Source of the DNA: a virus
Strand: one strand, 5' to 3'
Virus genome (UHGV): UHGV-0290768
DNA length: 55,056 bases
Shown here: in pieces, positions 3,287-23,715 of the stretch
How positions within the stretch are numbered: position 1 is the first letter of the stretch
How the letters are laid out: each line of letters starts with the position of its first letter
Program-made: the position numbers and the translations under genes
Notes under the pieces: generated by a model
The model's database searches: none
What the model saw: the letters and a program-made list of their open reading frames with translations, nothing else
Told to the model about the DNA's origin: nothing

Positions 3287-4714
3287 TCAACTTTCTAGTG
3301 CGTCAACTCGCCTAATCAAATCCTGCACCACTGTTACCAAATCGGCGATGATGGCCGTGTAATCAACATTCATCACCCTGAATTTTTCGCCATCGATCTC
3401 CTGCTCGATGCCGAGGAAAGTATACAGATCATCAGCTTTTTCAGCCTGCTGAGCGATAAAACCACGCCTCCGGCGCGTTTCGCCTTTCATATTGAACTCG
3501 CATACCCCCAGCGCATTAATGCGCCTGGAGGCCCCTTCCTGAGGTTCTGTAAACCCGTCTTTCAGACGAACGTCAGAACCGGTAGTCATGACGTCACCTT
3601 TGCCGGTGGTGATTGTGCCGCCAGGCCGAAATAGCCAGGCATCGGTTCTTCCGAAACCGTCAGAGTACAGCACGATCCGGTGCTCAGTGCCGACCTTCTC
3701 CTCCATGTACATTTGCACGTATGCGCCGTCCGGGTCGCCGTAAGCGCCTCTTCCCAACATCTGAGACCGCACAGGTGCGGCGGTGACCTGCTGGCCGACT
3801 GCGATATTGCCGGGCATTGTTGAGCCAGCGGTTAAATTGCCATCGGTAACTAACAAGCTGGCATTGCCCTGAATATTTAGTCTGTTTTGCCGGTCCTGGA
3901 TAATGCGGGCGGTAAAGTCGGCGATGCTGCCGTTGAAATGAAAGTCGATGTATGGCGTGCTCATCGATAGCTCTAACGCCTGGGAATACAGCTTGCCCTT
4001 TGCCGTATTATCGAAACCACCACCGACAACCAAATCTCCGGGCAACGTCGTCTGGTTATTGGTGCCAATAACGAGGATGTCATCAAAGGTGTCTGCCGGT
4101 GATACAGTGGTCGCTCTTGAACGCTGAACCCTAAACGGTGTTCCCGAGCCAACGGCAATTGTCCCGCCTTGCCCCTGTTTTTTGAGCAGAGCCAGATCTG
4201 AGTTCTTACCGAGTATAAAACCGGCATTATCGCTGGTTATAACCTGCGAGCCGTCGAGTTTGTTTCCTCCGGTGAGTTTTGCCAGCGCGTTAAGATCCGA
4301 GGCCTTCGCCATCCCGGCTATCGCCGGCACGGTCACCTGCTTTCCTGTGATCGGGTCAGTCAGGGTGATATTGCCGCTGCCGGTCAGGGCCATCGACCAG
4401 CCCTCCACTACACTACGCCAGAATGCAAACGCGCTGGCCAGCTGGTTAGCAAACGACGAGGTGCTGGCGGTTTCAGCGGTAATAATGCCGTAACTGGCAC
4501 CGGAAAATGCGGTGGTGATATTCCGGGTCAGCGTCAGTTGCGTGTCGCTGTCCACGGATTTGATCGCATACAGGTCAGCACTACCGCTGCGGTAGACCAC
4601 TAGAATCGACCCGGGCAGTATCCCCAGCGCCTCCTGTGACCATTTTGTTGTCGCACCTGTCACCCGTGCCTGCGACGCGGCACCCGTGACGGTACCGACT
4701 TCATACATCGCCAT
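3287..4714 (-). CDS. stf: Side tail fibre with a C-terminal intramolecular chaperone (peptidase S74 / endosialidase-chaperone type) domain
   Basis: Gly/Thr/Ser-rich fibre body. C-terminus has the S-D-x-R-L-K autocleavage motif (TTGSDVRLKDGFTEP) followed by a helical chaperone segment. Confidence 0.65.
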   Translation of the reverse strand: MAMYEVGTVTGAASQARVTGATTKWSQEALGILPGSILVVYRSGSADLYAIKSVDSDTQLTLTRNITTAFSGASYGIITAETASTSSFANQLASAFAFWRSVVEGWSMALTGSGNITLTDPITGKQVTVPAIAGMAKASDLNALAKLTGGNKLDGSQVITSDNAGFILGKNSDLALLKKQGQGGTIAVGSGTPFRVQRSRATTVSPADTFDDILVIGTNNQTTLPGDLVVGGGFDNTAKGKLYSQALELSMSTPYIDFHFNGSIADFTARIIQDRQNRLNIQGNASLLVTDGNLTAGSTMPGNIAVGQQVTAAPVRSQMLGRGAYGDPDGAYVQMYMEEKVGTEHRIVLYSDGFGRTDAWLFRPGGTITTGKGDVMTTGSDVRLKDGFTEPQEGASRRINALGVCEFNMKGETRRRRGFIAQQAEKADDLYTFLGIEQEIDGEKFRVMNVDYTAIIADLVTVVQDLIRRVDALES

Positions 4715-4782: not shown

Positions 4783-7700
4783 TCAGGTTGATGAACCGCG
4801 AATTACGTTGTTATTGCGCGCGGCGAAGGCGTCGAATCTTGAGAGGATGGTTAATACCATCTGTCCGTTACGGTCCAGGTAACAGCCATATCGCAGAACA
4901 GCGTCGCCAGTACCGGCAGGGACGACAAATGACATGTTGTCTACGTTCATTGACTCTTGCGCCGTTAACAGGCGTGTTGCTCCACCTGTTTCATACATAA
5001 GCTCAATGCCTAGCTCCATACTGCCGCCACCAGACGTAGCGCCTGTGCCACGAAGAAGCATTGCATACGACAGATAGCCAGGATTCAGTCCGCCGTCAGC
5101 CCCTGGCGCGTAGGACATCCCCGCTCTTAGTTTCGCGCCGCCGTCGATAGTGATGCTATCCGTCTGGAGGAGTCCACCGCGAATATTGATCACCTGGTCG
5201 AAATTCTGCCGCCGGAACCGGGCCAGCTCAAACCACTGCCATGTAGCCTTCGGCACCTTGCGCGTGCGGTGCTGAGCGATGTTGATCGCAAATGACCCGA
5301 TGTCGCCCTCGATGTGGTTCGCATATACCGTCCCCTGGAACCAGCCGTCAGTCGCATAAACCGCACCGCGAACGATCACGTTGTTGAACTGCGAAGAGCC
5401 ATCCTTGGCGATACGCCAGCCGCGTGACCCGTCAACAAAGTCATTCGAGCGGATCTCGTTGCCGATCTTCGCGTTCGTGATGGAACCGTCCGCGATTTTG
5501 GTTGAGGTCAGGGAACTGTTTTTGATACGTGCCGTATCGATATACAGCTCATTGCCTTCGGCAACCATCACCGGAACAGCCGTCGCATTATTACGGTTAA
5601 ACAGCGAGAAGCGGTCAGCGTAGAGGATCATGTCGCTCGTTTCACCATTGCTGCCCAGCGTAATCCCCGCGCCAACATTCTTCCCGTTAACCGTCTCAAC
5701 CTTCATCGACCACAGCGAACTCACCGTACCATTCACATCCGCCACGGTTTTGGCGGTGTTCTGAACGGAAGCGCTGAGATCCCCGACACTGGATGTCAGG
5801 GTCGTCTGCTGCGTTGCCAGCGCCTCCAGTGCCGTTGCATGCGTCTGCTGGGTACTGGTGATACTGGCCACCGATTTAATCGTGTTGTCCAGCGTCGTCT
5901 GGTTTTTGATGTTGGCGGCCGCCTGCGCGTCAATCTGCGACTGAAGCGAGGTATTCAGGCTGGCCTGTGTGCTCTGGCTGTCGCTTAGCGTCTTCGCCAT
6001 GTTATCGACGCGGGAGTTGGCATTATCCACTTTCGTGGCCAGTGCCGTCTGCTGCTGCGCCTGGGCGGTGATTTTCCCTTCAGCATCCGTTACGCGAGCC
6101 GTCAGACCGCTCACGGCACTCGCCGTCGCGTCAGAGGCATCCTGTGCAGCTTTCGCATCGGTAACATCCGTGATAACCAGATCGTCGATATACAGCGAAT
6201 AACCGGGGGTGCCGCTGCCGGAGGCGCCACGGGTAGAGATCCAGACCACTGCGCGCGTTCTCCCATCCCCGTTGTTACTGGCAATACCCGTAAATTTCAC
6301 CCACTTATCACGCGCACCAAGAGCGGCTTCGCTGACAGTGACCGCCGACTGCCAGGAGTTTTGACCGGCAGCATTCAGTGAGTTAATGCCGACCAGCGTT
6401 GTCCACCCGGAGGATGGCGCCTGATCCGCCGGCATCATAGCCCAGAACTCAAACCGGAACTTCGCATCCTCACGGACTGACTGCCAGCTCCCAAGCTGTT
6501 TATCGCTGTTGCCGTTATTGTTCGCTCCTCGACTCACCTGCAGGCTCTTATTGCCGGTGAATTTCTGAGACGCCACCACAACGGCTGTGCCGTTCCCGCC
6601 CAGCACCTGGCCATCGCTGTAGCTTTCAAACGTACCGTCAACCCACGGATTAGCTCCCTGAGTGCGGATGGTATTGATGGTGCTGGTCAGCGACGTGATG
6701 CTCTGCGACTGGCTGGTGATGGTGTTTTCCACCTGGCTTACGCGACCGGTCAGTGAACTCACCGCGGACGTGTCAGCCTTTTTACCCAGCTCAGTATTCA
6801 TCGTGGTCAGGCTGTTCTGCAGACTGGTGAGCTGCTGCGACTGCGAATCCAGTTTACCCTCGGCAGACGTCATCCGGGTGGTCAACCCGGTGACAGCGCT
6901 TTGCTCGGCCTTCTTACTGACCGCCGCATTCGTGACGGCCAGATCGCCGCTGAGTTTCGTCAGCTGCTGCGCCTGGGTGGTGATAGCCCCTTCAGCAGCG
7001 GTGACGCGGGTATTCATCTGAGAAATGGCCCCGGCATTAGCTGCGATATCCTTTTCATCCGTAACATCGAGGACATGGAAATCATCGAAATACATTGCCC
7101 CCGCGCTGAGGAAGGTCGTCAGCTGGAAACTGGCCGTCGTGGTCTTCGTGGCTTTCCAGTCAAACGTTACCAGTTGCCAGCCAGAACTAAACGGTCCGTA
7201 GTTTGAGCCGACCAGCAGGCCAGTGCTGTCGGCCACACGAAACTTCGTGTTACCCGCATCTTTAATCGTGGTTCCCGGGTCCTGCTTCGCCCATACCCCC
7301 ATGCGGTAGGTACGACCCTGCGTGATACTGATTTCCTGCCCGACCAGGTTCGACTGGCCGGCGGACATTTTCAGCGCCTTGTTACCCGAATGCGGAACCT
7401 GTAAATCGGCCACCGTCGCGGTACTGCTCCAGCCGGTAAAGCCCGCCGCGCCGCGCTCAAAACTGCCGTTGACAATGAGGTTGCCCGGCATTTTCCCGCT
7501 GGCGTCAATATCCGCTGCCGTCTGGCTCAGGCTGTTACTAAGTTGCGTTAGAGAATCCCCTTGCGCACTGAGTGTTTTGCCCTGCTCAGTGACCTGGTTC
7601 TGCAGGGTGTTCATCGCGCTTGCGTCCGCTTTTTTGTTCACATTCGCATTCGTCGTGGCCAGATCGCTGCTGAGTTTTGTCAGCGCGCTGTTGGCTGCCG

Positions 7701-10700
7701 CGATGTCATTCCCCTGCTGCGTCACCGTGCCCTGCAGCTGCGTCACCGCTGTCGTGTCAGCCTTTTTACTCACCGTATCGTTTGTCGACCGGAGGCTGTT
7801 CTCCAGCGAGGTGGTCCGCGTGCCGATGCTGCTGAGCGTATCGCCCTGCTGGCTAACCGTGGTGGTCAGTGAATCCACCGCTTTTGCGGTCGCATCTGCG
7901 GTTTTCTGCGCACTGTTCGCCGCCGTCACGTTACGCATATGCCAGTCGGCAGCGTACCAGACAGTGCCGAACGGGCTGCTCTGATTAACCTGCAGGAACG
8001 GTCGCAGGAAGTTCGTGTCTGCCGGCACAGTAAAGCGCCAGGTGGCTCGTTTCCACGCGGTGGTGGTCTTGGTGTTTCCCCCGGACGCTCTCGCCCCAAT
8101 ACCACCAGTAGCAGTGGTGGCCCGACCGATGTAGAAATTAAAGTCAGCGCTGCCGGTACCACACGCTACCAGAGCAGACATTTCGTAAACGTCGCCCGGC
8201 GTCACAGCGATGTTGTTGATTTTTGGCACATGGTCTCGCCCGGCCAGCCGGACGGCATACCTGAACGGGCAGTCAGCCGGCACACCTGCAGCAGTGGTCT
8301 CCACCACGTCATAACCCATGCGGTCATACGCCGGATCAAATGACGGGTTTGGGATGTAATCATCCCCGGCAGCATTCCCGGCGTTCACCGCCGCCGTCAG
8401 GCTGACGATGTTGCTGTTGGCTGCCGTGAGGCCTGCCTCGGTTTTCTCCACCCGGCCAGTCAGCGCGTTAAGCGCCGTCTGATCCGCTTTGGTGTTGACC
8501 TTATCGGTGGTGCTGCTCAAATCGCCCTGCAGCTTCGTGATAGCCTGCCCCTGGGAGGTGATTTTGCCTTCCGCACTGGTGACCCGGCTGGTGAGATCAC
8601 TCACCGACTGCGCGCTGGCCTTTTGTGCCACGTTGTTGTTGGTGGTGTTCAGGCTGTTCTGCAGATTCGTGATGCTTTGAGACTGCGCGGTCAGTTGCCC
8701 CTCGGCATTCGTCACCCGACTGGTGAGGCTGTTAATGGCCGATGTGTTCGCGGTAATACCGCTGGCCGCATCATCCGGACTCGGTGACCAGTCAGTCATC
8801 ACGGTCCCGGTTTCCAGCTGAGGGCGACAGAGCCAGACTTCTTTGTCGGCAGACGTCGCGCTTTCCAGACGCGCGGCAATCAGCCGTTTGGTGCCACTGG
8901 TGGCAGGAATAACCCATTTCACCCAGTAACGCGCCCATGCGGTGGTCAGTTTCGTGACCGCCTTGCCGTCACCGGCCCCGCCTTTAACCCCCTGGCTGGT
9001 TTCCGTGGTGGTAGTGTTCGACGGGTTATAAAAATAACTCGCCATTTCCTGTCCGTTATAGGCACCTTTCGCATAGAAGCTGAATACAAATTCAGTACGC
9101 CCGGTAACATCCAGCGTCTGTTCATCCAGCTGGATATAACCGGATGCACCTTTCGCCAGCCGGGTGTAGGCCACGCGGTCGCCCAGATACGTCTCTGTGG
9201 CGTGGCGGCTGCTCCAACCCTCCAGTGTGTCCGCATTGCGGATAAGGTTGGTCCCGCCAACGGCCAGGGAGGAAAAGTTGTTTTCCAGGTTCGTCAGCGC
9301 GCTGCTTTGCGTGGTCAGATCCCTGCCATGCTGTTCAACGGTGTTCTGCAGGCTCTGCAGCGCCGTTGCATCAGCCTTCTTCGCCACATTGCTGTTAGTC
9401 GTGTTCAGGCTGTTCTGCAGGTTGGTCAGGCTGTCTCCCTGCGATTTCAGGCTGCCTTCGGTAGCCGTCACGCGGGTCGTCAGATTCGTCAGCGCGCTGG
9501 CATCGGCCTTGCCGCTGATATCCTTACCAAGTTGCGTCACATCCGACTGCAGCTTCGTGATCGCGCTGCCCTGAGACGTAATATTCTTCCCGTTCTGCGT
9601 GACTGACGCGGACAGACTGGAAAGCGCCTGCGCATTCGCATCGGCGGCATCGAGCGCCGCTTTCGCATCGGTCACGTCACTGATGATCAGATCATCAATC
9701 AGGAAGGCGTCACCCAGGCGAACTTTTGGTGTATTCGGGATGGAGATCCTCACCATTGCCTGTTTCAGTGCGGTTCGGTTGTTGGTCAGATAGCCACTGA
9801 CCTTTGTCCAGTTGTCCACCGACAACTCGGAGACTTTCACGTTCAGGCCAGGCCACGACCAGCCATTGGCAGAATCCTGGAAGGAAAATCCTAGCACCAT
9901 ATAAACGGTCGGATCGGCGGTCGAGCCAGCCGGCAACTTAACCCACGCCTCCACGTAATAGACCGCATTATCGCGAACCTGCATACCAGAAAAGATATGG
10001 GTATCGTTATTATCCGTCGCGTTCGGGTTGTACTCCGTACTGCGCGTAACACGCAGGCTTTTGGTCCCGCTGTGCGCAGCTTCACTGGTGATAACAGCGC
10101 GGGCATTACTGAGAACATCGCCGACGGCATAGGATTCAAAACTGCCGTCCGGCAGTACATTGGCTCCCCGTGTTGCCTGTTGCTTCAGCGATGTATTCAG
10201 CCTGGTCAGGCTGTCGGCCTGGCTACGGATATCCTTTTCAGTCTGGGTAACCCGGTTGGTCAGTGAACTGACCGCCGACGCATCAGCCTTCTTCGCCACA
10301 TCGCCTTTGACCCCTTCCAGCGCGTTATTCAGCGCCGTGATGGATTGCCCCTGTGATGTCAGGGTGTTCCCCTGGTTCGTCACCGTCCCGGTCAGAGACG
10401 AAACAGCATCGCTGGTCGCCTTGATGTTGGTTTCATCGGTGATATCAAAAACCCGGACGGAATCGAGCCAGATTTCACCGTTTGTCGGATGAGAATAAAG
10501 TTTGAAGTTCTGCCCGTCCGCGCCGGCAGCCGTCAATCCGGTTTCCCAGGTGATGGTTTGCCAGTCAGTGGTCAGCGTGACCGTTTTATCCTCATACGTA
10601 CTGTCCGTCTGGCCGATTTTGTTCTGGCGACGGATCAGCAGACTCATCGCGCCGGAAACACCTTTGGCCTTCACCACCACGCGGTACTTGCGCTGGCCAT

Positions 10701-13700
10701 TCAGCGGCACCGGCTTGTTGTTGTTGGAGAAGATCCCCGGACTGGTGTTAGTCGTCCGGTTCAGCCGGACCCCCGCTTTCCCGTCCCCGAAATCGCCAAA
10801 AGTCACACCGGCTGGATACTGAATATCCCAGGCAGTGCTGCCCTGTAGAAAATCAAAGTTCGGGATCAGGTTGTCGCCAGCGTTGCGGGTGGCCGTCAGC
10901 ACATTCGCCAGATTTGTCAGCTGCTGGCTCTGTGTGGTCAGTTTCCCTTCCGCCTCTGTCACCCGGTTATCGACCGAAGTCAGTGCCGTTGCATCGGCCT
11001 TCTTCGACACATTGCTGTTGGTCGTGTTCAGGCTGTTCTGCAGGTTCGTCAGCTGCTGGCTTTGCGAGGTGATAGCCCCTTCCGCTGTGCTGACCCGGCT
11101 CGTCAGTCCGGTAACGGCGCCGGCGGTGGCATCGATGTCCACCCGGTCGGTAACGTCAGTGACGTAAAAATCATCGAAGTAGCGGCTGCCGCTAATCAGA
11201 TAGTTGCTCAGCGTCACCGGCAGGCTGGCTGTCTCCGTCGCTTTCCAGCGACCGGAAACCAGGGTCCAGTTTGTCCCCACCGTGCCGCTGTTGTACGGAC
11301 GCTCAAAGACCGGCTGGCCGGCAGAGTTACCGATCCGCAACTTGTTGTTCCCCGCGCCATTATCCGTCGTCGCTCCGGGTTCCTTGACCCACACCCCGAT
11401 TTCATAGGTTCGCCCCTGAACAAACGGGATGTATTGCCCCGGAGACACGCTCCCCGGATCAACCTTCAGCGCCCGCGTCCCGCTGTGAGGAGCGGAAACC
11501 TCCACCACACTGGTCGCGGTTGACCGCCCGGTATAACCATCCAGCCCGCGTTCAAATGATGGATTCGCGACCAGGTTACCCGGTATCTGACCGCTGGCAT
11601 CGATATCTGCCGCAACCTGCGAGAGACTGTTCGACAGGTTCGTCAGCGAATTGCTCTGGCTCTCCAGCGTTTTGCCCTGCTGCGTCACTTTCGTGTCGAG
11701 CGTGGCCAGCGCTGTCGCATCGGCTTTCTGCGCCAGCGCTTTATCGGTATTCGCCAGATTTCCGGTCAGTTTCGTGATGGCGCTGTTTGCAGCCGTCAGG
11801 TCGTTGCCCAGCTGTGTGACGGTATTGGTCAAATCCTGCACCGCTGTCGCATCAGCCTTTTTGGCCACTGCGGCATTGGTGGTTGCCAGCCCGTTTTCCA
11901 GCTGAGTTGTCCGGTTGCCGGTCGAGGTCAGCAGATTACCCTGTTGCGTCACGGTGGTGGTCAGCGAGTCAACCGCCGCCGCCGTGGCATCCGCAGTATC
12001 CTGAACCTTTTGCGCCGCTGTCACATTTCGCATATGCCAGTCCGTAACGAACCATACGGTGCCATACGGGCTGTTCTGCGAGATCTGCAGGAACGGGCGG
12101 ATATAACCCCTGTCTACCATCGCCTGCGTGACCTTGAAGCGCCAGGTGGTTCTCTGCCAGGTCGCGGAAGGTGATTTTCCGCCCCCCGCCATGAGTGGCG
12201 CACCGGTGCTCGTATCTGGCCGAACGGCGGTGCCAACATACAGATTAAAATTCGCCGTGCCGGCGCCGCAGGCAACCAGTGCGCTGATCTCAATCACATC
12301 GTTAAGCGTGGCCGGGAACGCGGCAAAGTTAGGATGGTGATCCCGGCTGGCAATTCTGGCCGCATAACCATACGGGCAGCCAGGAGGGACCTCCTCAGCC
12401 GTCGTGGATACGACGCTAAACCCCATCTGGTCGTAAGCCGGGTCAAATGTCGGGTTGGGAATTAAATCCCCGCCTGATGCGTTTCCGGCCCGTACAGCGG
12501 ATTTCAGCGAGGTAATGTTGGCGTTAGCAGCCGTCAGCCCGGATTCCGTCTTCTCCACTCGTCCGGTTAGCGAGTTCATCGCCGTCTGATCCGCTTTGCT
12601 GGCCACGTTCGCGTCTGTCTGCGTCAGCGCATTCCGGAGCTGGGTGATGTTCTGCGAATTGCTGACCACATCGTTGCCAATCTGGCTGACATTCGAGCTG
12701 AGCACGCCGGCTGCGTTTGCCAGCGCGGAAACCCCGAGACCGGAGTACATCTCAGCAACCTTGTCTGACAGCTTCAGACCCAGGTTGATATACGCCTGGC
12801 CGGTCCACTGATTCACCAGAAACTCAACGGTGTTCCAGCCGGCTTTCAGTTCAAAACTGACGGTATTCCAGCTGGCGTTACCCCAGGCGACCTGAACCCC
12901 ATTCACAAATATGGCGCCGGTATCATCAAAAACCCTGGCGCCGGGCGCCAGTGTGATGGTGGTATCTGCGGCCACTTTCACCTGGCAGGAATACAGCGCG
13001 ATCAGATAGCTGCCGGCGGATGTAAAGTCCAGTTTGGCCGCGTCGGCCACCTCATCCACGACCGTTGGCGCCACGGCGCGAACATCGCTGAATGACGGGA
13101 CTGTCCCGGCGTTAGCCAGCTGCACCGGATAGAGTCGACGGGACCAGCGATTCGGCTGGCCATTGACCAGTTGATTCGACAGGCTGGTGATGCTGTCAGT
13201 ATTGCTGCGAATATCCTGCCCGTTTTGCTCTACCTGCTGCGTTAAGGCAGTGACCGCAGCCGCTTCGGCTTTCTTCGCCAGCGCGGCATTTGTCGTGCCC
13301 AAATCGCTCGTCAGTTTCGTGATGGACTGACCCTGGCTGGTTATCCTGTCACCCTGCTGGGTAACAACAGACTGCAGCCCGCTCAGCGCCTCATTAGTAC
13401 CAGCCAGTCCCGTTTCCGTCTGGCCAACCCGGTTAGTGAGCGATGTTAACGCGGCGCCCTGCGATGTCAGCGTGGCGCCCTGTTGCTCAACTTTCTGCGT
13501 CAGGGACGTCAGCGCGGCTGCATCGGCTTTTTTCCCGAGGCTGGTTTCCAGGCCACCGATACGGCTCGCCTGCGCGCTCTGCTCTGTCGTCAGAGAACTC
13601 AGTTCACCAGAAACAGCAGCTTTGTTATCGTTAAACTGCGTCTGCAGGGACTCTCTGGCCTTAACTTCCGCCGAGATGGCGGTAACGCGTGCGGTTTTTT

Positions 13701-16700
13701 CCTGGTACAGCAGCCCGGAGGTGACTTTCTCCAGATCGCTCCCATCATAGGAGCCACGCATCTGCGCCGCCAGCGTGCTGCGTGCCTGCGCTTCGGCAGT
13801 CAGCGCGTTACTCAGCGTACTGCGCACATCCTGCAAAGCCGCCGTACTGGCGCCGGGTGCTGGCCGGCCAACGGCGATCCAGTCGAATTCGATAAAGTTG
13901 CTGGCATCCTGCTGGTTCGTCAGGTCCAGGCGAATACGATCAATGTTCCCTGTCCACGGAATATCACGCACCGTCAGGGTTGCCACCCCATCGGCATATT
14001 CCGGCTCAGCAACAATGTATCGCTTCGTGTTATTGAAGTTTTCGCCGGCAGACACCCAGCGGATCTCACCCGCCCAGACTGGTTTGCCGGTTTTACGAAA
14101 GCGCAGCATGATGAAACGGTACGCCGCACCATCGACAGCTAGCCCGCCAGGAGAGGTAATGTACGGATCGGTGGCGCTGTCCGCCGGGCGTAACCAGCCA
14201 TCCTGTGACACACCCGGTACGCCGGCGCTGCCGGTCCAGCCCTCGGTCGTCTGATTGTTGAAATGCCAGATAACCTGCGAATCGAACTGGATATTAGCGC
14301 CGGCAGCGAGGCTGGACATTTCCCGCGCCAGATTTTCATCGGCGGTCTTCATCACCTGAGTCAGGCTCTCGATACTCGCCTCAATCCCCTGCGTTGCCGC
14401 CAGCAGTTCATCAGCGGCCTGTGACGCCTTCGCGTTAACATCGGCGATACGATCCGCGGTCTCCTGCTTCACCGCATTGGTCAGCGTGGTGTTGACCTGA
14501 GACAGCGACTGCTTCAGGCCATTTTCGGCAGTCTTTATCTGCGCATTCAATGCGGCATCGCCGTCGACCAGCGTTTTGCTGACCCTGGCAATCTCCAGGT
14601 CGATGGTGGCGTTGATTTCCGCAGCCGTATCGGTGACTGACTGTCTTACCTGGGTGATGCTGTCGGTCAGCGACTTGTTCACAGTTGCGATCTGCTTGTT
14701 CGCATCTGCGACGGCGGATTTTGCCTCCTGAACGCCTTTGTTTGCCTGAGCCAGACCAGAATCGAGAGCCTCATTGACCGAGGTGATCTCATCCGTGATG
14801 GTTTTATTCACGGCGGAGATCTTCCCGTCAACATCAGCCGTGATGCTTTTCGCCGATGCATCAATATCCTGGCTGACCTGCTTCGCCTGGTCTTCGGCTT
14901 CCTTACGCAGAGCTTCAGCGGTCTGCTCCAGTTCCTGCTGCGTATTGCGGATACCTTCCTGTGTTTCGCTAATGGTGCGCTGCGTTTCCTCCCAGGCAGC
15001 CGTATCCTTGATCGCGTCGGTCAGGTTTTCGTAGTAGTCATCAAAGTTATCGCTGGCCATCCCCTGGACCCAGCCGGTCCACGGGCTTTCATTGCCAAGA
15101 CGATCCACAAGGCGCGCCCGATACCAGAATTCTGCGCCCATACTGAGGCCCATCTGCTGATAGCTTTTCCCCGGATAGGCCACGTCTGATAACGGCATCG
15201 GCGCACTGCCGTCCTGATTTTTGCTGTACTGTAGTTCCGTGCGCAGCGTATCCCCGGAGCCGGTCGGGAACTCCCAGCTAACCTGGACCCCATGAACCAG
15301 AGAACGGGTTGCCAGCGCCAGCGGCGCCAGCGGCTCGCCGACCTTGCCGGTCAGGGTTTTCTCTTCGGAATACGCCCAGCCGCTCGAGATCTCCGCCGCA
15401 TTGATCGCACGGACGCGAACCAGGTAACGACCGGCATAAATGCCGCTGACCTCAAACGAGGTGGTCGAGCTGCGCGGTACATTAATCCAGTTCCCGTCGT
15501 TACGGCGCCACTGTGCCTCGTAGGCAATAGCGCCGCTGACCGCTGACCAGTTAACCTGCATCGTTTCGACGCTGATCCCCTGATTCACGACCGAGCGGGA
15601 TGTGATGACAATATCGTCAGGAGGTGACTGGTTGCCCGCCGGCAATACGCTAACCGGGCGCTGGTCGATAATAGCGCCGGTATCGATGCGGGGGAATTTA
15701 TCCGGGTCATGTGCCACGCCGGTGATCGTGAGGGTGGCATCGCTGTTCTCTTTTACCCCTGTAACCCGGTACTGCTGCAGGAAGAGGTCATCGGATTCAA
15801 TGGCCCAGACGCATTCCCGTTCTGGTGTCTCACTGTACGCCGTTGTGACCGTAATCTGCCGACGTCCGTTAACAGCCTGAATTGTCCGGCTCTGTGAGAT
15901 CCCGGATGGCAGGTTTAGCTGGAGGCGGTCGCCAGGTTTGGCATCCACATCACGATCCAGCGTAATCACCCGGCCATTCACCGCGCTGATTCGCCCGCCG
16001 TTTACCCGTCCGGCCAGCAACTCATCCGCCAGGGCAATGATATAACCGGGTTGAGGAATGCGACCGTCCAGCCCGACATCAATTTCGACCATGCGGTCCT
16101 TATTGTTGGTCAGTATGCCCCACAGCCCCTTACGGTGGGCTTCGCTCTGGCGCGTACAGCCAATCGCCGTCATTTCGAGCTGGTTAAAACTGTAGCGGGA
16201 AACCAGTTCCGGGATAAATGCCGGCTCCATTGCATCAGCATAAGCATTATCCGGATCAGACCAGGAAACCAGGGCGTTGGTGTACCGAACCTGGCTGCTG
16301 CTGCTCGAATAACGGGGTTTGCCGATAATATTGGCGCGCGTATAGGTAAAATCGACATCACGCGGCATATCAGCCTGCACAACAATCTGCTCACCGTTCC
16401 AGCAGGTCATGCCCCGGAAAATGGCGGCAAAGTCTCGCAGCACGGTGTAAGCATCGTTGCGTTCCTGGACATAGACGTTACAGGTATAGCGCGGCTCCAT
16501 GCCGTCACCACCGCGCCCGTCAGGAACCAGCTGATCGCAGTACTGTGCAATCTGGTACAACGTCCATTTCGAAATATTGGCGCTGCTCAGACGATTACCG
16601 AGACCAAAACGGTCAGCTATAACAATGTCGTAATAGATCCAGGCCGGGTTATCCGTCCAGGCCCATTTAAACCCGCCGGTCCAGACGCCGGTATATTCGC

Positions 16701-17487
16701 GGGTTTCCGGATTGTAGTTATCCGGCACACGAATCACGCGCCCACGCGGCTCACAGGAAATTTGCGGAATGGAGCCATTAAACTGGCTGGAGTCGAACTC
16801 GATATAAAGCAGCGCGGTGTTGGGATAACGCAGCTTCGCGTCAATCACTTCGGTATAGCTCTGCAGCGTCATCACGTCGCCAACTTTGACACTGTTTGCA
16901 TCCGGAGGGATTTTACGCAGGCGTAGCGTCCAGGTACTGCCGGCCTGGGGCAGATCAATACGATGGCTCCGCTCATAACCGGAGGTGGTTTTACCCGTGA
17001 CAGCGGTTTCCAGCACCGTCTGCCAGGCGCCGCCGTCGGTCTGCAGGTCAATCGCATACTTGACGGTATTGCCCACCACGTCGCCGTCATCTTCCTGTTT
17101 CATCAGGGACGGCCATTTCAGGCGGACACGAACGGCAGAAAGCTGGGTATTAGTAAAGGTATGGGTCCAGGCTGTCTTGCTGGAAACTTCCGTTCCCACA
17201 CTGATTTCATTTTCAGTACCGGGAATACCCTGAATATAAGTCTGAGCCTGCGTGCCGGGGCGAAATTCCCAGGACACGCCACTGAAGTTTTGCGAACCAT
17301 CAGCATTTTCAAGCGGGGTGCCATCAAGATAAATATCTTTCCCGGTTAAACCACCTGCAAATTCACCCTCACCTAATGCGAGCAGAATTTTGGCTTTCGC
17401 AACGGACTGTAAATCATCCGGCTGTTCCGTCGGTGTACGCTGCTTTGAGCCGCCACCCTTGCGCCCTTTAATTATGTTGTTTGCCAT
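4783..17487 (-). CDS. J: Giant (4234 aa) host-specificity / central tail fibre protein, lambda J family, with a ~3100-aa internal expansion
   Basis: N-terminal ~800 aa and C-terminal ~300 aa align with lambda J (for example YTEVIDAKLRYPNTALLYIEFDSSQF...RYTCNVYV, and C-terminal WSMKVETVNGKNVGAGITLG...TAKNADISG-like). The middle is made of heptad-like repeats (xLTxRVxxxEGxITxQxQxITxLQNSLNTTNxxVxKKAD) alternating with ~150-aa beta-sandwich domains. Confidence 0.9.
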   Translation of the reverse strand: MANNIIKGRKGGGSKQRTPTEQPDDLQSVAKAKILLALGEGEFAGGLTGKDIYLDGTPLENADGSQNFSGVSWEFRPGTQAQTYIQGIPGTENEISVGTEVSSKTAWTHTFTNTQLSAVRVRLKWPSLMKQEDDGDVVGNTVKYAIDLQTDGGAWQTVLETAVTGKTTSGYERSHRIDLPQAGSTWTLRLRKIPPDANSVKVGDVMTLQSYTEVIDAKLRYPNTALLYIEFDSSQFNGSIPQISCEPRGRVIRVPDNYNPETREYTGVWTGGFKWAWTDNPAWIYYDIVIADRFGLGNRLSSANISKWTLYQIAQYCDQLVPDGRGGDGMEPRYTCNVYVQERNDAYTVLRDFAAIFRGMTCWNGEQIVVQADMPRDVDFTYTRANIIGKPRYSSSSSQVRYTNALVSWSDPDNAYADAMEPAFIPELVSRYSFNQLEMTAIGCTRQSEAHRKGLWGILTNNKDRMVEIDVGLDGRIPQPGYIIALADELLAGRVNGGRISAVNGRVITLDRDVDAKPGDRLQLNLPSGISQSRTIQAVNGRRQITVTTAYSETPERECVWAIESDDLFLQQYRVTGVKENSDATLTITGVAHDPDKFPRIDTGAIIDQRPVSVLPAGNQSPPDDIVITSRSVVNQGISVETMQVNWSAVSGAIAYEAQWRRNDGNWINVPRSSTTSFEVSGIYAGRYLVRVRAINAAEISSGWAYSEEKTLTGKVGEPLAPLALATRSLVHGVQVSWEFPTGSGDTLRTELQYSKNQDGSAPMPLSDVAYPGKSYQQMGLSMGAEFWYRARLVDRLGNESPWTGWVQGMASDNFDDYYENLTDAIKDTAAWEETQRTISETQEGIRNTQQELEQTAEALRKEAEDQAKQVSQDIDASAKSITADVDGKISAVNKTITDEITSVNEALDSGLAQANKGVQEAKSAVADANKQIATVNKSLTDSITQVRQSVTDTAAEINATIDLEIARVSKTLVDGDAALNAQIKTAENGLKQSLSQVNTTLTNAVKQETADRIADVNAKASQAADELLAATQGIEASIESLTQVMKTADENLAREMSSLAAGANIQFDSQVIWHFNNQTTEGWTGSAGVPGVSQDGWLRPADSATDPYITSPGGLAVDGAAYRFIMLRFRKTGKPVWAGEIRWVSAGENFNNTKRYIVAEPEYADGVATLTVRDIPWTGNIDRIRLDLTNQQDASNFIEFDWIAVGRPAPGASTAALQDVRSTLSNALTAEAQARSTLAAQMRGSYDGSDLEKVTSGLLYQEKTARVTAISAEVKARESLQTQFNDNKAAVSGELSSLTTEQSAQASRIGGLETSLGKKADAAALTSLTQKVEQQGATLTSQGAALTSLTNRVGQTETGLAGTNEALSGLQSVVTQQGDRITSQGQSITKLTSDLGTTNAALAKKAEAAAVTALTQQVEQNGQDIRSNTDSITSLSNQLVNGQPNRWSRRLYPVQLANAGTVPSFSDVRAVAPTVVDEVADAAKLDFTSAGSYLIALYSCQVKVAADTTITLAPGARVFDDTGAIFVNGVQVAWGNASWNTVSFELKAGWNTVEFLVNQWTGQAYINLGLKLSDKVAEMYSGLGVSALANAAGVLSSNVSQIGNDVVSNSQNITQLRNALTQTDANVASKADQTAMNSLTGRVEKTESGLTAANANITSLKSAVRAGNASGGDLIPNPTFDPAYDQMGFSVVSTTAEEVPPGCPYGYAARIASRDHHPNFAAFPATLNDVIEISALVACGAGTANFNLYVGTAVRPDTSTGAPLMAGGGKSPSATWQRTTWRFKVTQAMVDRGYIRPFLQISQNSPYGTVWFVTDWHMRNVTAAQKVQDTADATAAAVDSLTTTVTQQGNLLTSTGNRTTQLENGLATTNAAVAKKADATAVQDLTNTVTQLGNDLTAANSAITKLTGNLANTDKALAQKADATALATLDTKVTQQGKTLESQSNSLTNLSNSLSQVAADIDASGQIPGNLVANPSFERGLDGYTGRSTATSVVEVSAPHSGTRALKVDPGSVSPGQYIPFVQGRTYEIGVWVKEPGATTDNGAGNNKLRIGNSAGQPVFERPYNSGTVGTNWTLVSGRWKATETASLPVTLSNYLISGSRYFDDFYVTDVTDRVDIDATAGAVTGLTSRVSTAEGAITSQSQQLTNLQNSLNTTNSNVSKKADATALTSVDNRVTEAEGKLTTQSQQLTNLANVLTATRNAGDNLIPNFDFLQGSTAWDIQYPAGVTFGDFGDGKAGVRLNRTTNTSPGIFSNNNKPVPLNGQRKYRVVVKAKGVSGAMSLLIRRQNKIGQTDSTYEDKTVTLTTDWQTITWETGLTAAGADGQNFKLYSHPTNGEIWLDSVRVFDITDETNIKATSDAVSSLTGTVTNQGNTLTSQGQSITALNNALEGVKGDVAKKADASAVSSLTNRVTQTEKDIRSQADSLTRLNTSLKQQATRGANVLPDGSFESYAVGDVLSNARAVITSEAAHSGTKSLRVTRSTEYNPNATDNNDTHIFSGMQVRDNAVYYVEAWVKLPAGSTADPTVYMVLGFSFQDSANGWSWPGLNVKVSELSVDNWTKVSGYLTNNRTALKQAMVRISIPNTPKVRLGDAFLIDDLIISDVTDAKAALDAADANAQALSSLSASVTQNGKNITSQGSAITKLQSDVTQLGKDISGKADASALTNLTTRVTATEGSLKSQGDSLTNLQNSLNTTNSNVAKKADATALQSLQNTVEQHGRDLTTQSSALTNLENNFSSLAVGGTNLIRNADTLEGWSSRHATETYLGDRVAYTRLAKGASGYIQLDEQTLDVTGRTEFVFSFYAKGAYNGQEMASYFYNPSNTTTTETSQGVKGGAGDGKAVTKLTTAWARYWVKWVIPATSGTKRLIAARLESATSADKEVWLCRPQLETGTVMTDWSPSPDDAASGITANTSAINSLTSRVTNAEGQLTAQSQSITNLQNSLNTTNNNVAQKASAQSVSDLTSRVTSAEGKITSQGQAITKLQGDLSSTTDKVNTKADQTALNALTGRVEKTEAGLTAANSNIVSLTAAVNAGNAAGDDYIPNPSFDPAYDRMGYDVVETTAAGVPADCPFRYAVRLAGRDHVPKINNIAVTPGDVYEMSALVACGTGSADFNFYIGRATTATGGIGARASGGNTKTTTAWKRATWRFTVPADTNFLRPFLQVNQSSPFGTVWYAADWHMRNVTAANSAQKTADATAKAVDSLTTTVSQQGDTLSSIGTRTTSLENSLRSTNDTVSKKADTTAVTQLQGTVTQQGNDIAAANSALTKLSSDLATTNANVNKKADASAMNTLQNQVTEQGKTLSAQGDSLTQLSNSLSQTAADIDASGKMPGNLIVNGSFERGAAGFTGWSSTATVADLQVPHSGNKALKMSAGQSNLVGQEISITQGRTYRMGVWAKQDPGTTIKDAGNTKFRVADSTGLLVGSNYGPFSSGWQLVTFDWKATKTTTASFQLTTFLSAGAMYFDDFHVLDVTDEKDIAANAGAISQMNTRVTAAEGAITTQAQQLTKLSGDLAVTNAAVSKKAEQSAVTGLTTRMTSAEGKLDSQSQQLTSLQNSLTTMNTELGKKADTSAVSSLTGRVSQVENTITSQSQSITSLTSTINTIRTQGANPWVDGTFESYSDGQVLGGNGTAVVVASQKFTGNKSLQVSRGANNNGNSDKQLGSWQSVREDAKFRFEFWAMMPADQAPSSGWTTLVGINSLNAAGQNSWQSAVTVSEAALGARDKWVKFTGIASNNGDGRTRAVVWISTRGASGSGTPGYSLYIDDLVITDVTDAKAAQDASDATASAVSGLTARVTDAEGKITAQAQQQTALATKVDNANSRVDNMAKTLSDSQSTQASLNTSLQSQIDAQAAANIKNQTTLDNTIKSVASITSTQQTHATALEALATQQTTLTSSVGDLSASVQNTAKTVADVNGTVSSLWSMKVETVNGKNVGAGITLGSNGETSDMILYADRFSLFNRNNATAVPVMVAEGNELYIDTARIKNSSLTSTKIADGSITNAKIGNEIRSNDFVDGSRGWRIAKDGSSQFNNVIVRGAVYATDGWFQGTVYANHIEGDIGSFAINIAQHRTRKVPKATWQWFELARFRRQNFDQVINIRGGLLQTDSITIDGGAKLRAGMSYAPGADGGLNPGYLSYAMLLRGTGATSGGGSMELGIELMYETGGATRLLTAQESMNVDNMSFVVPAGTGDAVLRYGCYLDRNGQMVLTILSRFDAFAARNNNVIRGSST

Positions 17488-17549: not shown

Positions 17550-18161
17550 TTATTGCTGGTCTTCTACGTAAATACCGGCAGATATAATGGCGCCGCCAAT
17601 TCGGCGTTTGCCATAAAGCAAAGGGACCGGGTATCCCTGAGAGGCAGTATTCGTCACGCCCCCAAAGGCGTAGGACGCTTTATTGTCAGCAGATTCTTTT
17701 CGGGCCAGCCCTGCTGGCTGTGGGGAAAGCATCTGAACGACGCCGCCGAGCATCATAGCACCGCCCATCATTGCCATCTTAGAACCAACAGCCCAACCTA
17801 CACCGGTCCATCCAGAAACATATCCAACGATAACCCCAACCGCAACCAACGCCGCGCCCATAATTGTTTGTAAAACACCTGCTTTTTTACTACCAATGAC
17901 AACCGGAATTATGCGTAAAACCTCTCCTGTAAGAGGAAATGATAAATCACGTTCACCAATATTTTTTTTGCCCTTAAATACTGCAAACGTTATCCCTTTT
18001 TCCTTGCTTTTATTAAGAAATTTTTCAAAACCCTCTAAGGTACAACATAAGGCTCTAACAGCTTCAGATGAGTTTGAAACAAGCCTTTGATGATGCTTCC
18101 CAAAAGTTTTACCCAAAATTCCGCCTAATTCTATTTTTGTCATTACCTCTTTCATGCTCAC
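17550..18161 (-). CDS. I: Tail assembly protein I (lambda I family)
   Basis: Directly upstream of J. Gly/Ala-rich hydrophobic core. C-terminal PLLYGKRRIGGAIISAGIYVED resembles the lambda I C-terminus. Confidence 0.75.
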   Translation of the reverse strand: MSMKEVMTKIELGGILGKTFGKHHQRLVSNSSEAVRALCCTLEGFEKFLNKSKEKGITFAVFKGKKNIGERDLSFPLTGEVLRIIPVVIGSKKAGVLQTIMGAALVAVGVIVGYVSGWTGVGWAVGSKMAMMGGAMMLGGVVQMLSPQPAGLARKESADNKASYAFGGVTNTASQGYPVPLLYGKRRIGGAIISAGIYVEDQQ

Positions 18162-18206: not shown

Positions 18207-18542
18207 TCACATACAACTTTTCGCAGCTTTTCCCCAAGGGTCATTCCAACCTTTGGATATAGCATAAACATGAACGTTGCTTCCACCTTCTTTGGAAGGT
18301 TCTATTTTTGCTATGGATACAGTTCCTAATAAATCATCCGACGCGACAATTTTATACCCTGTCTCAGTAGGGATAACTGAGCTTGATGGCCTTAATTCAA
18401 CCCATTTAGGAGCAAGGCACTTACTTATTTTATCTATGCTTTTTTGTGAATTTCCGGAATATATTGGCTCTTGCGATTCCAGAGAACTTGCCATACAACC
18501 ACTAAGCATAAACATTGAAAATAGCAGGGCTGTTTTTTTCAT
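18207..18542 (-). CDS. Lipoprotein moron between tail genes K and I
   Basis: Classic lipoprotein signal MKKTALLFSMFMLSGC (lipobox LSGC) with a good SD (AAGGA, 7-nt spacing). Strongly AT-rich relative to flanking tail genes. Longer N-terminal extensions back to 18584 are possible. Confidence 0.6.
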   Translation of the reverse strand: MKKTALLFSMFMLSGCMASSLESQEPIYSGNSQKSIDKISKCLAPKWVELRPSSSVIPTETGYKIVASDDLLGTVSIAKIEPSKEGGSNVHVYAISKGWNDPWGKAAKSCM

Positions 18543-18577
18543 TTCCATATCCTTTTTAGATGCCATTTCCTTAAAGG

Positions 18578-19288
18578 TTAACATAGAGACTTATACCGAA
18601 CGACCTTCATTGTCCTTTCCATCCAGTACCCACCATACGGCACGCGCTTGCTGAGATGGCCATACAGGTGATGCAGCAGCATATTCCCTTCCAGCAGAAT
18701 CCCGGCGTGGTTCCACTTATCCGCCTGCACCTGCATGATCACCATATCACCCGGTTGCGGTGGACCATCAAACTCACGGAACCCGCATTCATACCAGCAG
18801 TCCTGATAAAAATTGTCCGGATACTCCTTTTCCCACCACGGATAATCGACGCGGTAATCGTGCAGCTCGATGCCGTGGGTTTGCCGAAAATAGCTCATCA
18901 CCAGGCCCCAGCAATCGTAGTGGCCCAGCACGAATGGTCGCTCGAGGAGCGGCAACTCACCACGCGGGTGGATGGTACGGAGATCGCCTTCTGGCCAGCT
19001 GATAATATGCCAGGGGAGAAGGGTCGCGTCGCATTGCGCTTTATCCAGTTCGCTCGGCTGGGTGGTGGCATCAGGATGGCTGTGAACAATACCGGTGATC
19101 GTTCCCCATTCTTCAACCTCCGCATAATCCTCCGGCGCCAGCACAAAATTATCTTTCGACTCTGTGGCCAGGTTCCGGCAGGGGAAATAACGCTCCGCTC
19201 GGCCCCTCTGGGCGACGAGGCCGCAGGCCTCGCGCGGATATTCTGCGGCCGCATGTTCCTGGATGGACTTAATCGTTTTCTGACGCAT
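18578..19288 (-). CDS. K: Tail assembly protein K (MPN/JAB + NlpC/P60 domains)
   Basis: MRQKTIKSIQEHAAAEYPREACGL... resembles the lambda K N-terminus. H-x-H JAB motif (IVHSHPD). Cys/His NlpC/P60 residues downstream. Confidence 0.85.
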   Translation of the reverse strand: MRQKTIKSIQEHAAAEYPREACGLVAQRGRAERYFPCRNLATESKDNFVLAPEDYAEVEEWGTITGIVHSHPDATTQPSELDKAQCDATLLPWHIISWPEGDLRTIHPRGELPLLERPFVLGHYDCWGLVMSYFRQTHGIELHDYRVDYPWWEKEYPDNFYQDCWYECGFREFDGPPQPGDMVIMQVQADKWNHAGILLEGNMLLHHLYGHLSKRVPYGGYWMERTMKVVRYKSLC

Positions 19289-20045: not shown

Positions 20046-20383
20046 GGTTTAAATGCCTGAATAAAAGTGGCTGAAAGTGAGTAATTTCCGCCGCCCAGCG
20101 GCACCGGTTTGTATTGTTCGCAGCGGTAAAGCCCCACCTCTTCCAGAGGCGGGGTCCACTGAAACGCGCGGGTGCCGGCATGACGGTCGAAGAACTGCTT
20201 AATCGGACGGATATAGTCCTCCGTACCGACAAAACTCAGCTCCCAATCCTGTGATCGGGTGTTAATACCATCGCCGGATACCTGCGCATACCCGTCACCG
20301 AACTGCGCCTTCCGGACACGAAAGTTAACGGTCTGCTGGGGATTAACCCGCGGACTCCAGGTGAATATCTCAATAGCCATCAA
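20042..20383 (-). CDS. M: Minor tail protein M
   Basis: 113 aa. RKAQFGDGYAQ... motif as in lambda M (VRFGDGYSQ). 4-nt overlaps with the tape measure and L genes. Confidence 0.8.
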   Translation of the reverse strand: MMAIEIFTWSPRVNPQQTVNFRVRKAQFGDGYAQVSGDGINTRSQDWELSFVGTEDYIRPIKQFFDRHAGTRAFQWTPPLEEVGLYRCEQYKPVPLGGGNYSLSATFIQAFKP

Positions 20384-23300: not shown

Positions 23301-23715
23301 AAAGCTCCGGTTTAGCCGACGCCATCAGCTTTAACGCTTCGGCGGCCTGGCTGGCGCTGTACTCTGTCGTGCGCCCCATTTCCTGCGCAGCCAGATCCAG
23401 CGCTTTCATTTCAGCTGCAGTCGCACCGGTGATGGCCTGCAGATCTGATAACGCCTGTCCATATTGTCTGGACGTGGTGACGATCGTACCGATGGAAAGG
23501 CCGGCTCCTGCCAGCCCCGCCAGCCGGCTGGCCATCCCGGATATCGACAGACCGACCTTCTTATAGGCGTCTTCCGTCTTTTTCGCGTCCGCCTGGGCAT
23601 TACGGTTAAACCGTCGTGACTGGTTCTCCGCATCGCCATACGCTCCCAGCAGCTGGGATTTAAAACTGGCTGCGTTCAGGTGCAGCCCGACCGCTAAAGA
23701 TGCGACGTCTGCCAT
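20380..23715 (-). CDS. H: Tail tape measure protein (lambda H-like)
   Basis: ~1110 aa Ala/Gln-rich helical protein downstream of G/GT. The start is taken as ATG GCA GAC (MADVAS), which overlaps the GT stop. An upstream in-frame ATG at 23745 is the alternative. Confidence 0.85.
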   Translation of the reverse strand: MADVASLAVGLHLNAASFKSQLLGAYGDAENQSRRFNRNAQADAKKTEDAYKKVGLSISGMASRLAGLAGAGLSIGTIVTTSRQYGQALSDLQAITGATAAEMKALDLAAQEMGRTTEYSASQAAEALKLMASAKPELLKTSDGLQKATNSALILAQAAGTTLPDATRTLALSLNQYGASAQEADRYINVLAAGAKYGSSEIVDTAAAIKNGGVAAAQAGVGFEQLNAAIQVLAEREIKGGEAGTALRNVILNLEKGTDKSLKPSVVGLSQALTTLSGKNLSTAQAVKLFGVENLNAASILVQNRSKLDELTASLTGTKTAHEQASIRVNNLNGDLLGLSSAFEGMVIKIGQSSNGPLRSGIQVATEALNSLADNFNTVSSVALYSLIPVLSTKLTAGLRENIAAWRESQAAVKARAQADADIARKTLDSTAAILKQNDAEFGHYRQMERTAKQYGMNISYQDEFTRLIRQETEQTNLASQAKLKLAAANRQLSISARAASVAVGLARGALNLIGGPFGAAMLAGSGLLYFHEKAKEARQSAIDLKDAVVETSEALMRLSLNQLNVKQFDLEDQYENQVVQRNQLMKEIQDADSRIDSLKGFDPFGQLEGVTKGQARARADLDSVNEGLRKTEENIKRVSDAKTLAQLGLSGKITSLTDDLKGALSTPPKETGDGNPWGGDGGTGTGKGSKSKVDQFKTLRQQIEEAHASSLARINLQEKDSNRELQEAAKKNGASDADLQRALLMNAENYQKQRLDLAAQYSPAQETLRKEQEASRDLAELFKARLLDEKEYQAARITLARDTAKELLQAHADEIAAPALDIAGEVDPLVSLRNQLAQRQALLQAYYQGSAISKEQYEMLMQKATKESADAQYQTSLELYRSQGEFQSLAVGLFETAHERSSNFLTSMLTRTRSFKENMADLFSSLTQSIIKNLVDMAAQALVTSSVMQTIMGVVGVGTSVVTGAAGAGSGTAIQNAASNFQFNAKGGVYDSPSLSAYSNQVYDSPQFFAFAKGAGVFGEAGPEAIMPLTRAGDGSLGVRAVGGVQNAGASEGPKVYITIEGGNTSTQAPSGFEQFGQQIGSFVEKKYRELMAQDMRPGGMVWNAVKGQR

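Follow-up and report, generated by a model that had tools for sequence, protein, structure and literature searches.

A giant TipJ/gpJ-family central tail fibre with ten modules of predicted carbohydrate-binding type in a Klebsiella prophage

What is the middle of a phage central tail fibre of 4234 residues made of, and what could it do for the phage? The question is raised by the virus genome UHGV-0290768, a stretch of 55,056 nucleotides (nt) that was analysed here in its whole length (the window). It is an integrated lambdoid Klebsiella prophage with a siphophage tail module of the phiKO2/NAR688 type, and a single unbroken open reading frame (ORF) at 4783..17487 on its minus strand starts with ATG and encodes 4234 amino acids (aa) plus the stop. 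The ORF is a real gene, and its product is a giant member of the TipJ/gpJ family of central tail fibres. It scores 5219 bits with PHROG 2589, the 3686-position profile of the giant J family, and 1251 bits with PHROG 31, 'central tail fiber J', and deposited genes for proteins of the same length (phage 020009, ST846-OXA48phi9.1 and WP_181726858.1, 4234 aa) are 99.1-99.3% identical to it at the nucleotide level. The reading of its function that we favour, with a probability of about 0.6, is that of a central fibre in which ten modules of carbohydrate-binding type are set along an extended trimeric rod that binds surface polysaccharide.

J-like ends on both sides of a large insert

The J scaffold is kept at both ends of the protein, as the original prediction had proposed. 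In the N-terminal part Pfam places an FNIII-A_GpJ domain at aa 91-217 (E 6e-47), and in a search of the PDB aa 12-849 align to residues 4-845 of lambda J (8iyk, E 8e-119) and aa 3-1065 to the central fibre of the F2 pyocin (25vf, E 7e-270). These matches cover a gpJ-like hub with its FNIII domains, the part that attaches to the tail tip (aa 1-855, 14923..17487; this and all other features of the gene are on the minus strand), and a proximal α-helical shaft (aa 856-1059, 14311..14922). The alignment to 25vf runs on to residue 1062, and judged by this likeness the shaft is a homologue of the shaft in F-pyocin central fibres, which has three strands. The place of the gene is also that of J. The tail operon follows the lambda order of tape measure (20380-23745), M, L, K, a small moron, I and J, as seen from the ORF order, Pfam and PHROG, and the PGAP annotation of a plasmid copy with 99.3% identity concurs with the position of J behind the tape measure, M, L, K and I.

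At the other end Pfam Phage_Tail_Tip (PF09327) is found at aa 3908-4048, with 107.5 bits against a cut-off of 22 bits, and a match to gp24, a J-like protein (23gd, E 6e-21), spans aa 3777-4051. The β-prism part of this tail tip fibre domain (PF09327/DUF1983; aa 3905-4064, 5296..5775) aligns to residues 842-998 of lambda J, and the distal helical segment in front of it (aa 3781-3904, 5776..6147) aligns to the coiled-coil region of gp24 and to the F2 pyocin fibre. The likeness to J had been extended to the whole of the C-terminal ~300 aa, which holds for the β-prism part and fails for the last ~170 aa, where similarity to the receptor-binding domain of lambda J, the LamB-binding C-terminal domain, was looked for and none was detectable. 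The terminal receptor-binding domain of the window protein (aa 4065-4234, 4786..5295) is instead known from its nucleotide and protein identity to J of the weberviruses: over its last ~700 nt the gene shares 95-97% of its nucleotides with the 3' ends of J genes in lytic weberviruses such as PhiKpNIH-2 and Fuzzy_ER39, and ~83% with other Klebsiella phages. The J protein of NAR688 has the same modules and a different tip. From such comparisons the terminal domain appears as an exchangeable cassette, common to the normal-size J proteins of Klebsiella weberviruses. The protein misses the curated cut-off of the NCBIfam model lambda_TipJ (NF049904), 466 as compared to 1950 bits. This is an 'exception'-type model for lambda J itself, and the result means that the protein is not lambda J; membership in the TipJ family is not excluded by it.

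The size of the insert can be read from the webervirus (T1-like) PhiKpNIH-2, whose gp72 (1271 aa) shows what the protein would be without it. It has a related hub (41% over aa 6-919) and a close tip (69% over aa 3874-4234, and 95% of the nucleotides over the last ~700 nt), and it lacks both the modules and the 44-residue repeats. Because this J of normal size aligns at both ends only, with nothing between, ~2950 aa (nt ~5870-14730) are extra in the window protein, close to the first estimate of ~3100 aa or 9.3 kb. Lambda gpJ (1132 aa; 8iyk, 8xcj) shares the hub, the FNIII domains, the tail tip fibre part and the place in the operon after M, L, K and I, but it has neither the coiled-coil shaft nor the lectin modules. 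The F2 pyocin fibre (25vf, 1204 aa) is the best solved match, including the three-stranded shaft, and its distal coil and tip align too. The shaft of F-type pyocins is ~160 residues long without inserted domains, unlike the stalk described here; side fibres dock on it, and a fold switch from coil to β-prism takes place on firing, which for the central fibres of the F7 pyocin (He et al. 2026, preprint) is described in PMC12874032.

Ten modules on a repeat-built stalk

The insert has globular segments in exactly ten places, each 141-169 aa long (here A to J), where at least ten β-sandwich domains of ~150 aa had been predicted. Four of them pass the gathering score of Pfam PF02018 (CBM_4_9), 25.9 bits, namely D (aa 1970-2118, 11134..11580) with 36.9 bits, E (aa 2205-2352, 10432..10875) with 28.5 bits, F (aa 2442-2610, 9658..10164) with 26.2 bits and I (aa 3335-3480, 7048..7485) with 41.4 bits. 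H (aa 3043-3190, 7918..8361), with a sub-threshold 18.1 bits, C (aa 1675-1825, 12013..12465), J (aa 3612-3780, 6148..6654) and G individually miss it. By iterated profiles, for which 266 relatives were used, C, D, E, F, H, I and J fall into one superfamily, and a profile seeded with D gives 82-161 bits on the other six, 104 bits in the case of J. Within this superfamily C and H, D and I, and F and J are paralogues, with identities of 58%, 46% and 38%, and are thus far from the near-identical pairs first reported. The signature N-[LIV]-[IV]-x-N-[GP]-x-F-E, with which the domains were said to start, is exact in D and I, followed loosely by C, E, F, G, H and J, and missing from A and B.

The three remaining modules are more distant. 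Module G (aa 2745-2906, 8770..9255) is a distant CenC/CBM4-like module of a GTNL...WSPSPDD type; its family profile matches 3see, a 'hypothetical sugar binding protein' (E 2e-4), the CBM-cenC structure 9euf and the xylanase CBM4-2 (1k42), and 5 out of 16 G-type relatives have PF02018 matches. For module A (aa 1060-1215, 13843..14310) the family profile matches residues 485-617 of the megatron protein of roseophage R4C (8gtc_M) at E 7e-16. Residues 482-629 of this protein are a carbohydrate-binding domain according to the R4C authors, and it is read as capsule-binding (PMC10276861). Module B (aa 1445-1585, 12733..13155) may be a β-sandwich of the PA14/lectin-like kind, and this is the weakest of the ten assignments, weak to moderate: the family profile matches the lectins 6t0q, 6t1d and 6kbj at E 1e-4 through a DDxxxxYVNG motif, each single stretch gives only ~12 bits, and a Pfam scan of the module gave no PA14 match. 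The pair D77-D78 is invariant in an alignment of 14 diverged relatives of module B. In PA14-type lectins, as in the flocculins, such a double Asp forms the sugar and calcium site.

Monomer models were made with AlphaFold2 (AF2) of aa 1040-1860 and aa 2190-2935, three modules each. Each of the six modules covered (A, B, C, E, F and G) is β-rich and the linkers are long helices, so that the alternation of helical repeats with β-sandwich domains, which had been predicted, is also seen in the models. The mean pLDDT is ~68, with ~90 for module A and 55-88 for the others, and the pTM is ~0.3. In a Foldseek search of the PDB the models matched carbohydrate-binding modules (CBMs) of the families CBM22, CBM16, CBM4, CBM35, CBM61 and CBM86 and a porphyran-binding CBM, with target-normalised TM values of 0.5-0.7, for instance CBM22 4xup_C (0.64), CBM16 2zey (0.68) and CBM4 1gui and 8xmz (0.70); those to CBM22, CBM16 and CBM4 include the ones ascribed to module E. 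Matches were also seen to Cea1A and KpFlo2, which are PA14 adhesins, and to gp20, the central fibre of mycobacteriophage Douge. The search used the three-module models without query ranges. The PA14-like matches were given to module B and the CBM matches to C, E, F and G by aligned length together with the sequence profiles, so that the attribution of a match to a single module is uncertain. The β-jelly-roll fold itself is found by both AF2 and Foldseek. Of the predicted viral structures in BFVD, 381 matched at E<=0.001; phage tail proteins are frequent among them, and several carry the name CenC/CBM, PblB or tip attachment protein J. Taken together, the modules are by their profiles and predicted folds of carbohydrate-binding type, eight CBM4/9/CenC-like, one like the megatron domain and one PA14/lectin-like, and glycan binding is what we infer for them. 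The first assignment to CBM4/9 is borne out by PF02018 in D, E, F and I, by the iterated profiles, by AF2 and by the CBM4, CBM16, CBM22 and CBM35 matches in Foldseek.

The linkers between the modules, 86-229 aa each, form the stalk (6655..13842) and are built of a 44-residue repeat. With a hidden Markov model (HMM) built from the repeat, 15 full units are seen plus about 8-10 partial ones, a total of 23-25, where more than 25 copies had been counted before. The partial units consist of the first 25-30 residues, each directly ahead of a module. A full unit is made of five heptads and one nonad with the motif KAD: large hydrophobic residues stand at positions 3, 10, 17, 20, 24, 31, 40 and 43 in 80-90% or more of the 15 full copies, and K-A-D at positions 34-36. 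In coiled-coil register this puts a at 3, 10, 17, 24 and 31 and d at 20, followed by a nine-residue step from 31 to 40 in which the three residues KAD replace d. The same arrangement of heptads and nonads has been solved as the 'β-layer' of trimeric α/β coiled coils, with the type motif IEN-KAD-KAD (Hartmann et al. 2016, PMC4786415), in OMP100, Tcar0761 and the prophage hyaluronidase fibre 2C3F. The motif reads V-x-K / K-A-D / x-x-A / L in the stalk and I-E-N / K-A-D / K-A-D in OMP100. The helices of the AF2 monomers break at the KAD motifs 1319, 2399 and 2659, which is consistent with β-layers and no proof of them. The shaft of the F pyocin is a solved three-stranded coiled coil (PMC13455828), and because the KAD nonad is a signature of β-layers and the shaft of the closest solved homologue is three-stranded, the stalk can be expected to be a parallel trimeric rod.

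Ahead of each module stand the first ~27 residues of a unit, and behind it come a (D)VTD motif and a short stretch that leads back into the coil. This suggests that the modules are elaborations of the β-layer position: the stalk would have one β-layer per 44 residues, and at ten places this position has seemingly grown into a β-sandwich. β-sandwiches of CBM or lectin type on central fibres or tip proteins are also known from Douge gp20 (8zdp), the R4C megatron (8gtc) and tail proteins of the PblB/CenC type in BFVD, but these have far fewer modules, and in none of them are ten nodes set along a KAD-nonad coiled coil with over 1300 helical residues.

A widespread family and its exchange of modules

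The original prediction knew of no described J homologue of this size, yet such homologues exist. The gp21 of phiKO2 is annotated as 'similar to lambda J protein' (GenBank NC_005857), and two Klebsiella prophages with a 'protein of ca. 4200 aa' homologous to it were remarked by De Sousa et al. (2020, PMC7784688). There are also NAR688, with its J of 4294 aa, and PHROG 2589. The PGAP name of the copy with 99.3% identity is 'gpJ: TipJ family phage tail tip protein', and fragments of the gene are called 'carbohydrate binding domain-containing protein' by NCBI. When 1.84 billion cluster representatives were searched exhaustively with aa 1040-2200 as query, 1146 clusters came up at E<=0.001, 411 of them at E<=1e-30, and the pooled search matches include 77 proteins of at least 1900 aa, the longest of 4797 aa. 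The giant J is a deposited and already remarked member of a large family, already known and functionally understudied; our literature search, in a limited library and therefore no proof of absence, found no paper that dissects the insert and no functional study of the fibre.

The J proteins of the Klebsiella telomere phages (phiKO2 gp21, NAR688, KpLi5 and the set of 4234 aa) share with the window protein the family, the N-terminus (MANNIIKGRKGG...), the 44-residue repeats and the module families. The telomere phages are linear plasmid prophages, whereas the tail module of the window lies in an integrated lambdoid prophage. The tail gene is also found with 99.3% nucleotide identity on plasmid prophages of ~55 kb of the N15/phiKO2 type (NZ_CP195223.1, CP038007), together with SopA/ParB and CyRepA1, and the structural cassette evidently moves between the plasmid-prophage and the integrated-prophage lifestyles. 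NAR688-like telomere phages are present in 11.6% of the Klebsiella genomes surveyed, and the structural cassette in at least 14.7% of the chromosomes (PMC12042878). By this prevalence of the NAR688-type cassette, the fibre is among the commonest phage host-recognition proteins in an important pathogen.

The usual layout in the family is a J N-terminus, module A, 1-12 modules in varying order and a tip domain. NAR688 J (4294 aa) has modules A-J in the order of the window and another terminal domain, KpLi5 J (3792 aa) is without modules E and F, phiKO2 gp21 (3433 aa) has the order A-G-J-I-C-G-J and 48ST307 J (3193 aa) the order A-B-C-D-B-F-G. The loss in KpLi5 can be followed to its junction, which runs from ...LTNLQNSLNTTNSNV directly into AKKADATALQSLQ... 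and joins, in register, the first half of the repeat unit aa 2130-2173 (10969..11100) to the second half of the unit aa 2671-2714 (9346..9477). These two units share the longest nucleotide identity of the gene, and the first of them holds one copy of the longest exact repeat, 26 nt. From this junction, E and F were lost by recombination between two repeat units in register, and the repeats therefore serve as sites of recombination where modules are lost or gained. At the same place (aa ~2170-2290 of KpLi5 J) three copies of one 44-residue unit (AKKADATALQSLQNTVEQHG.DLTTQSGALTSLQNSLNTTNSNV) stand in tandem, and the units therefore expand locally too.

In some deposited genomes the giant J is split over two or more annotated ORFs, as in 48ST307, where the 3193 aa are followed by an ORF of 551 aa, and in Kpn74, with 3088 aa and fragments named 'DUF1983'. 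This is likely due to frameshifts or sequencing errors. A scan with the single sequence of module A found seven loci. Sequences with 98-100% identity also occur in assemblies of Limoniibacter endophyticus (NZ_BMZO01000013.1), Stappia sp. and Rhodanobacter denitrificans, on one contig of 52 kb and two of ~420 bp, and these copies in Alpha- and Gammaproteobacteria look like contamination of the assemblies by a Klebsiella telomere phage.

Possible function, and the genes around the fibre

How could such a fibre work? J proteins are trimers, and with its KAD nonads the insert, which extends the shaft by ~2950 aa, should form a parallel three-stranded rod with ten nodes of three lectin-like domains each, 30 per virion. 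The ~1300 linker residues and the ~200 residues of the proximal shaft would be roughly 200-270 nm long when fully extended, an estimate that exceeds the 133 nm measured for the tail of NAR688 in its published description. The ligand of the nodes would be surface polysaccharide (capsule or O-antigen), and weak, multivalent binding to it would give a reversible and serotype-dependent adsorption without a recognisable depolymerase and would bring the terminal domain to its receptor in the outer membrane. No depolymerase was recognised in J with Pfam, PHROG and NCBIfam or in the adjacent side fibre of 475 aa with Pfam and PHROG, and a catalytic β-helix or any other lyase or hydrolase domain is found in neither. 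Induced Klebsiella prophages are specific for capsule types without identifiable depolymerases (PMC7784688). The lack of a recognisable depolymerase, this specificity and the capsule-binding reading of the megatron domain all fit with binding to capsule or O-antigen, and a long multivalent glycan-binding central fibre would be a reasonable working model. NAR688, with its J of the same A-J order, forms infectious virions.

Several points weigh against this model. Modules C, G, H and J are individually under the Pfam cut-off and B has weak scores, and CBM-like folds serve non-lectin roles too, so glycan binding is a prediction. Both AF2 models are of monomers, and the trimeric state, the parallel register and the extended length are deduced in other ways. 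The micrograph of NAR688 is described as showing a 'central tail spike' as well as 'multiple long tail fibers' and no long beaded central fibre, which neither confirms nor cleanly fits a rod of ~200 nm. The fold-switch pattern of the F-pyocin type is also not enriched in the distal coil: SxSxxMxxLxS, a crude regular expression, occurs 3 times in aa 3781-3907, a number that was reached by 66 out of 300 shuffles. A nominal enrichment was seen solely in the linker between A and B (0 out of 300 shuffles), and we do not interpret it.

A more far-reaching version, which we put forward with considerable doubt, is that temperate Klebsiella siphophages have in the giant J their missing device for capsule specificity. 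Here the 30 lectin modules on a rod of ~200 nm would bind the capsule or O-antigen and not degrade it, from which the capsule-type tropism of induced prophages without depolymerases would follow. Recombination in register at the 44-residue repeats would add, drop and reorder modules, and in this way re-target the rod in nature. On binding to the receptor the rod may also shorten, like the switch from coil to prism in the F pyocins, and pull the tail tip through the capsule. For the question raised by De Sousa et al., how there can be specificity for capsule types without recognisable depolymerases, the domain map offers a concrete and testable hypothesis. The coordinates of ten lectin-type modules, the defined register of the repeat and an in-register deletion of modules found in nature are all given by it and can be used in the design of constructs. 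Should the modules turn out to be lectins with serotype specificity, they could find use as reagents for typing or as exchangeable parts in the engineering of host range.

It could also be that the modules bind no sugar and are purely structural, a length spacer or stabilising decoration that places the terminal domain far from the tail. The sugar binding is after all predicted, several modules are sub-threshold for CBM_4_9, and the terminal domain serves the normal-size J of the weberviruses alone and is maybe the sole determinant of specificity. That three unrelated folds of lectin type (CBM4/9, PA14-like and the megatron domain) were recruited together is however not expected of a spacer, nor does the invariant DD pair of module B across diverged relatives speak for it, and close relatives differ in their sets of modules while the ends are conserved, which is the pattern expected of specificity determinants. 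We therefore find a structural role unlikely. Somewhat more unlikely still is an array of lectins for glycans of the environment or of the animal host, such as mucins, which would hold the virions where Klebsiella lives. The CBM folds give no clue to the ligand, and mucin-interacting decoration proteins are reported for Klebsiella phages (PMBT63); on the other hand, the modules occupy the stretch of the central fibre that leads from the tail tip to the receptor-binding domain, on the way to the cell surface, and the homologous domain of the R4C megatron is read as capsule-binding.

An enzymatic depolymerase hidden in the insert, which would make J a capsule-degrading fibre and not a rod of lectins, is very improbable. 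De Sousa et al. did raise the existence of unrecognised depolymerases in temperate Klebsiella phages (PMC7784688), but the Pfam, PHROG and NCBIfam scans show no catalytic family, the ten globular segments are β-sandwiches and the rest is helical, with no β-helix or another large domain, and the plaques of induced prophages are without halos (PMC7784688), and we rejected this explanation. Finally, a repetitive protein can be suspected of being a product of assembly, by expansion or collapse of the gene into an ORF of 12.7 kb, and many relatives in the databases are indeed 'partial' proteins on contigs of 1.4-5 kb. These entries mean that short-read assemblies often break at this gene, and not that the gene is spurious. 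The repeats have diverged at the DNA level (60-82% identity over 40-110 nt, with a spacing of 132 nt), to such a degree that Tandem Repeats Finder gives no array over the gene, and NAR688 keeps the same order of modules. With the longest exact internal repeat at 26 nt, the gene being exactly 12,705 nt long in three independent records (CP038007, MK416021 and NZ_CP195223.1; 99.1-99.3% identity) and 85 substitutions and 0 indels between the window and NZ_CP195223.1, an assembly artefact can practically be dismissed. A defective relic was rejected in view of the intact ORF and of the infectious NAR688 of the same architecture.

The fibre gene has tail genes on both sides. Upstream is the gene for tail assembly protein I (17550..18161, minus strand; Pfam Lambda_tail_I, PHROG 32), and between K and I, where phiKO2 has gp19, a putative moron by its annotation, there is an ORF of 125 aa (18207-18584, minus strand; PHROG 914, function unknown). 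Downstream is the side tail fibre of 475 aa (3287..4714, minus strand; PHROG 1980), which has the S74 chaperone domain (Pfam Peptidase_S74) at aa 380-427, and its weak likeness to the anchors of depolymerases is confined to the N-terminal 100 aa. Further genes of the prophage are those for an integrase of the lambda type (53767-54894) and for an exonuclease VIII-like protein (51350-53488).

The tail genes are flanked by cargo genes of low GC content. Beyond the tail fibres, at 758-2884 on the minus strand, two such genes (~33% GC) encode a MASE2-GGDEF diguanylate cyclase (1805-2884) and an EAL-domain protein (758-1450) and may be prophage-borne genes for c-di-GMP signalling. In another low-GC island (~35%) an ORF of 739 aa (43999-46218, minus strand) is without a Pfam family; its sole PADLOC match is a weak one to the 'Aga REase-TIR' model (E 1e-4, in the N-terminal 120 aa), and it could be a defence or cargo gene. 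A further low-GC island at 38046-40407 on the plus strand holds a homologue of NA37, a nucleoid-associated protein of 37 kD (38046-39194), which overlaps an ORF of 416 aa without a family match.

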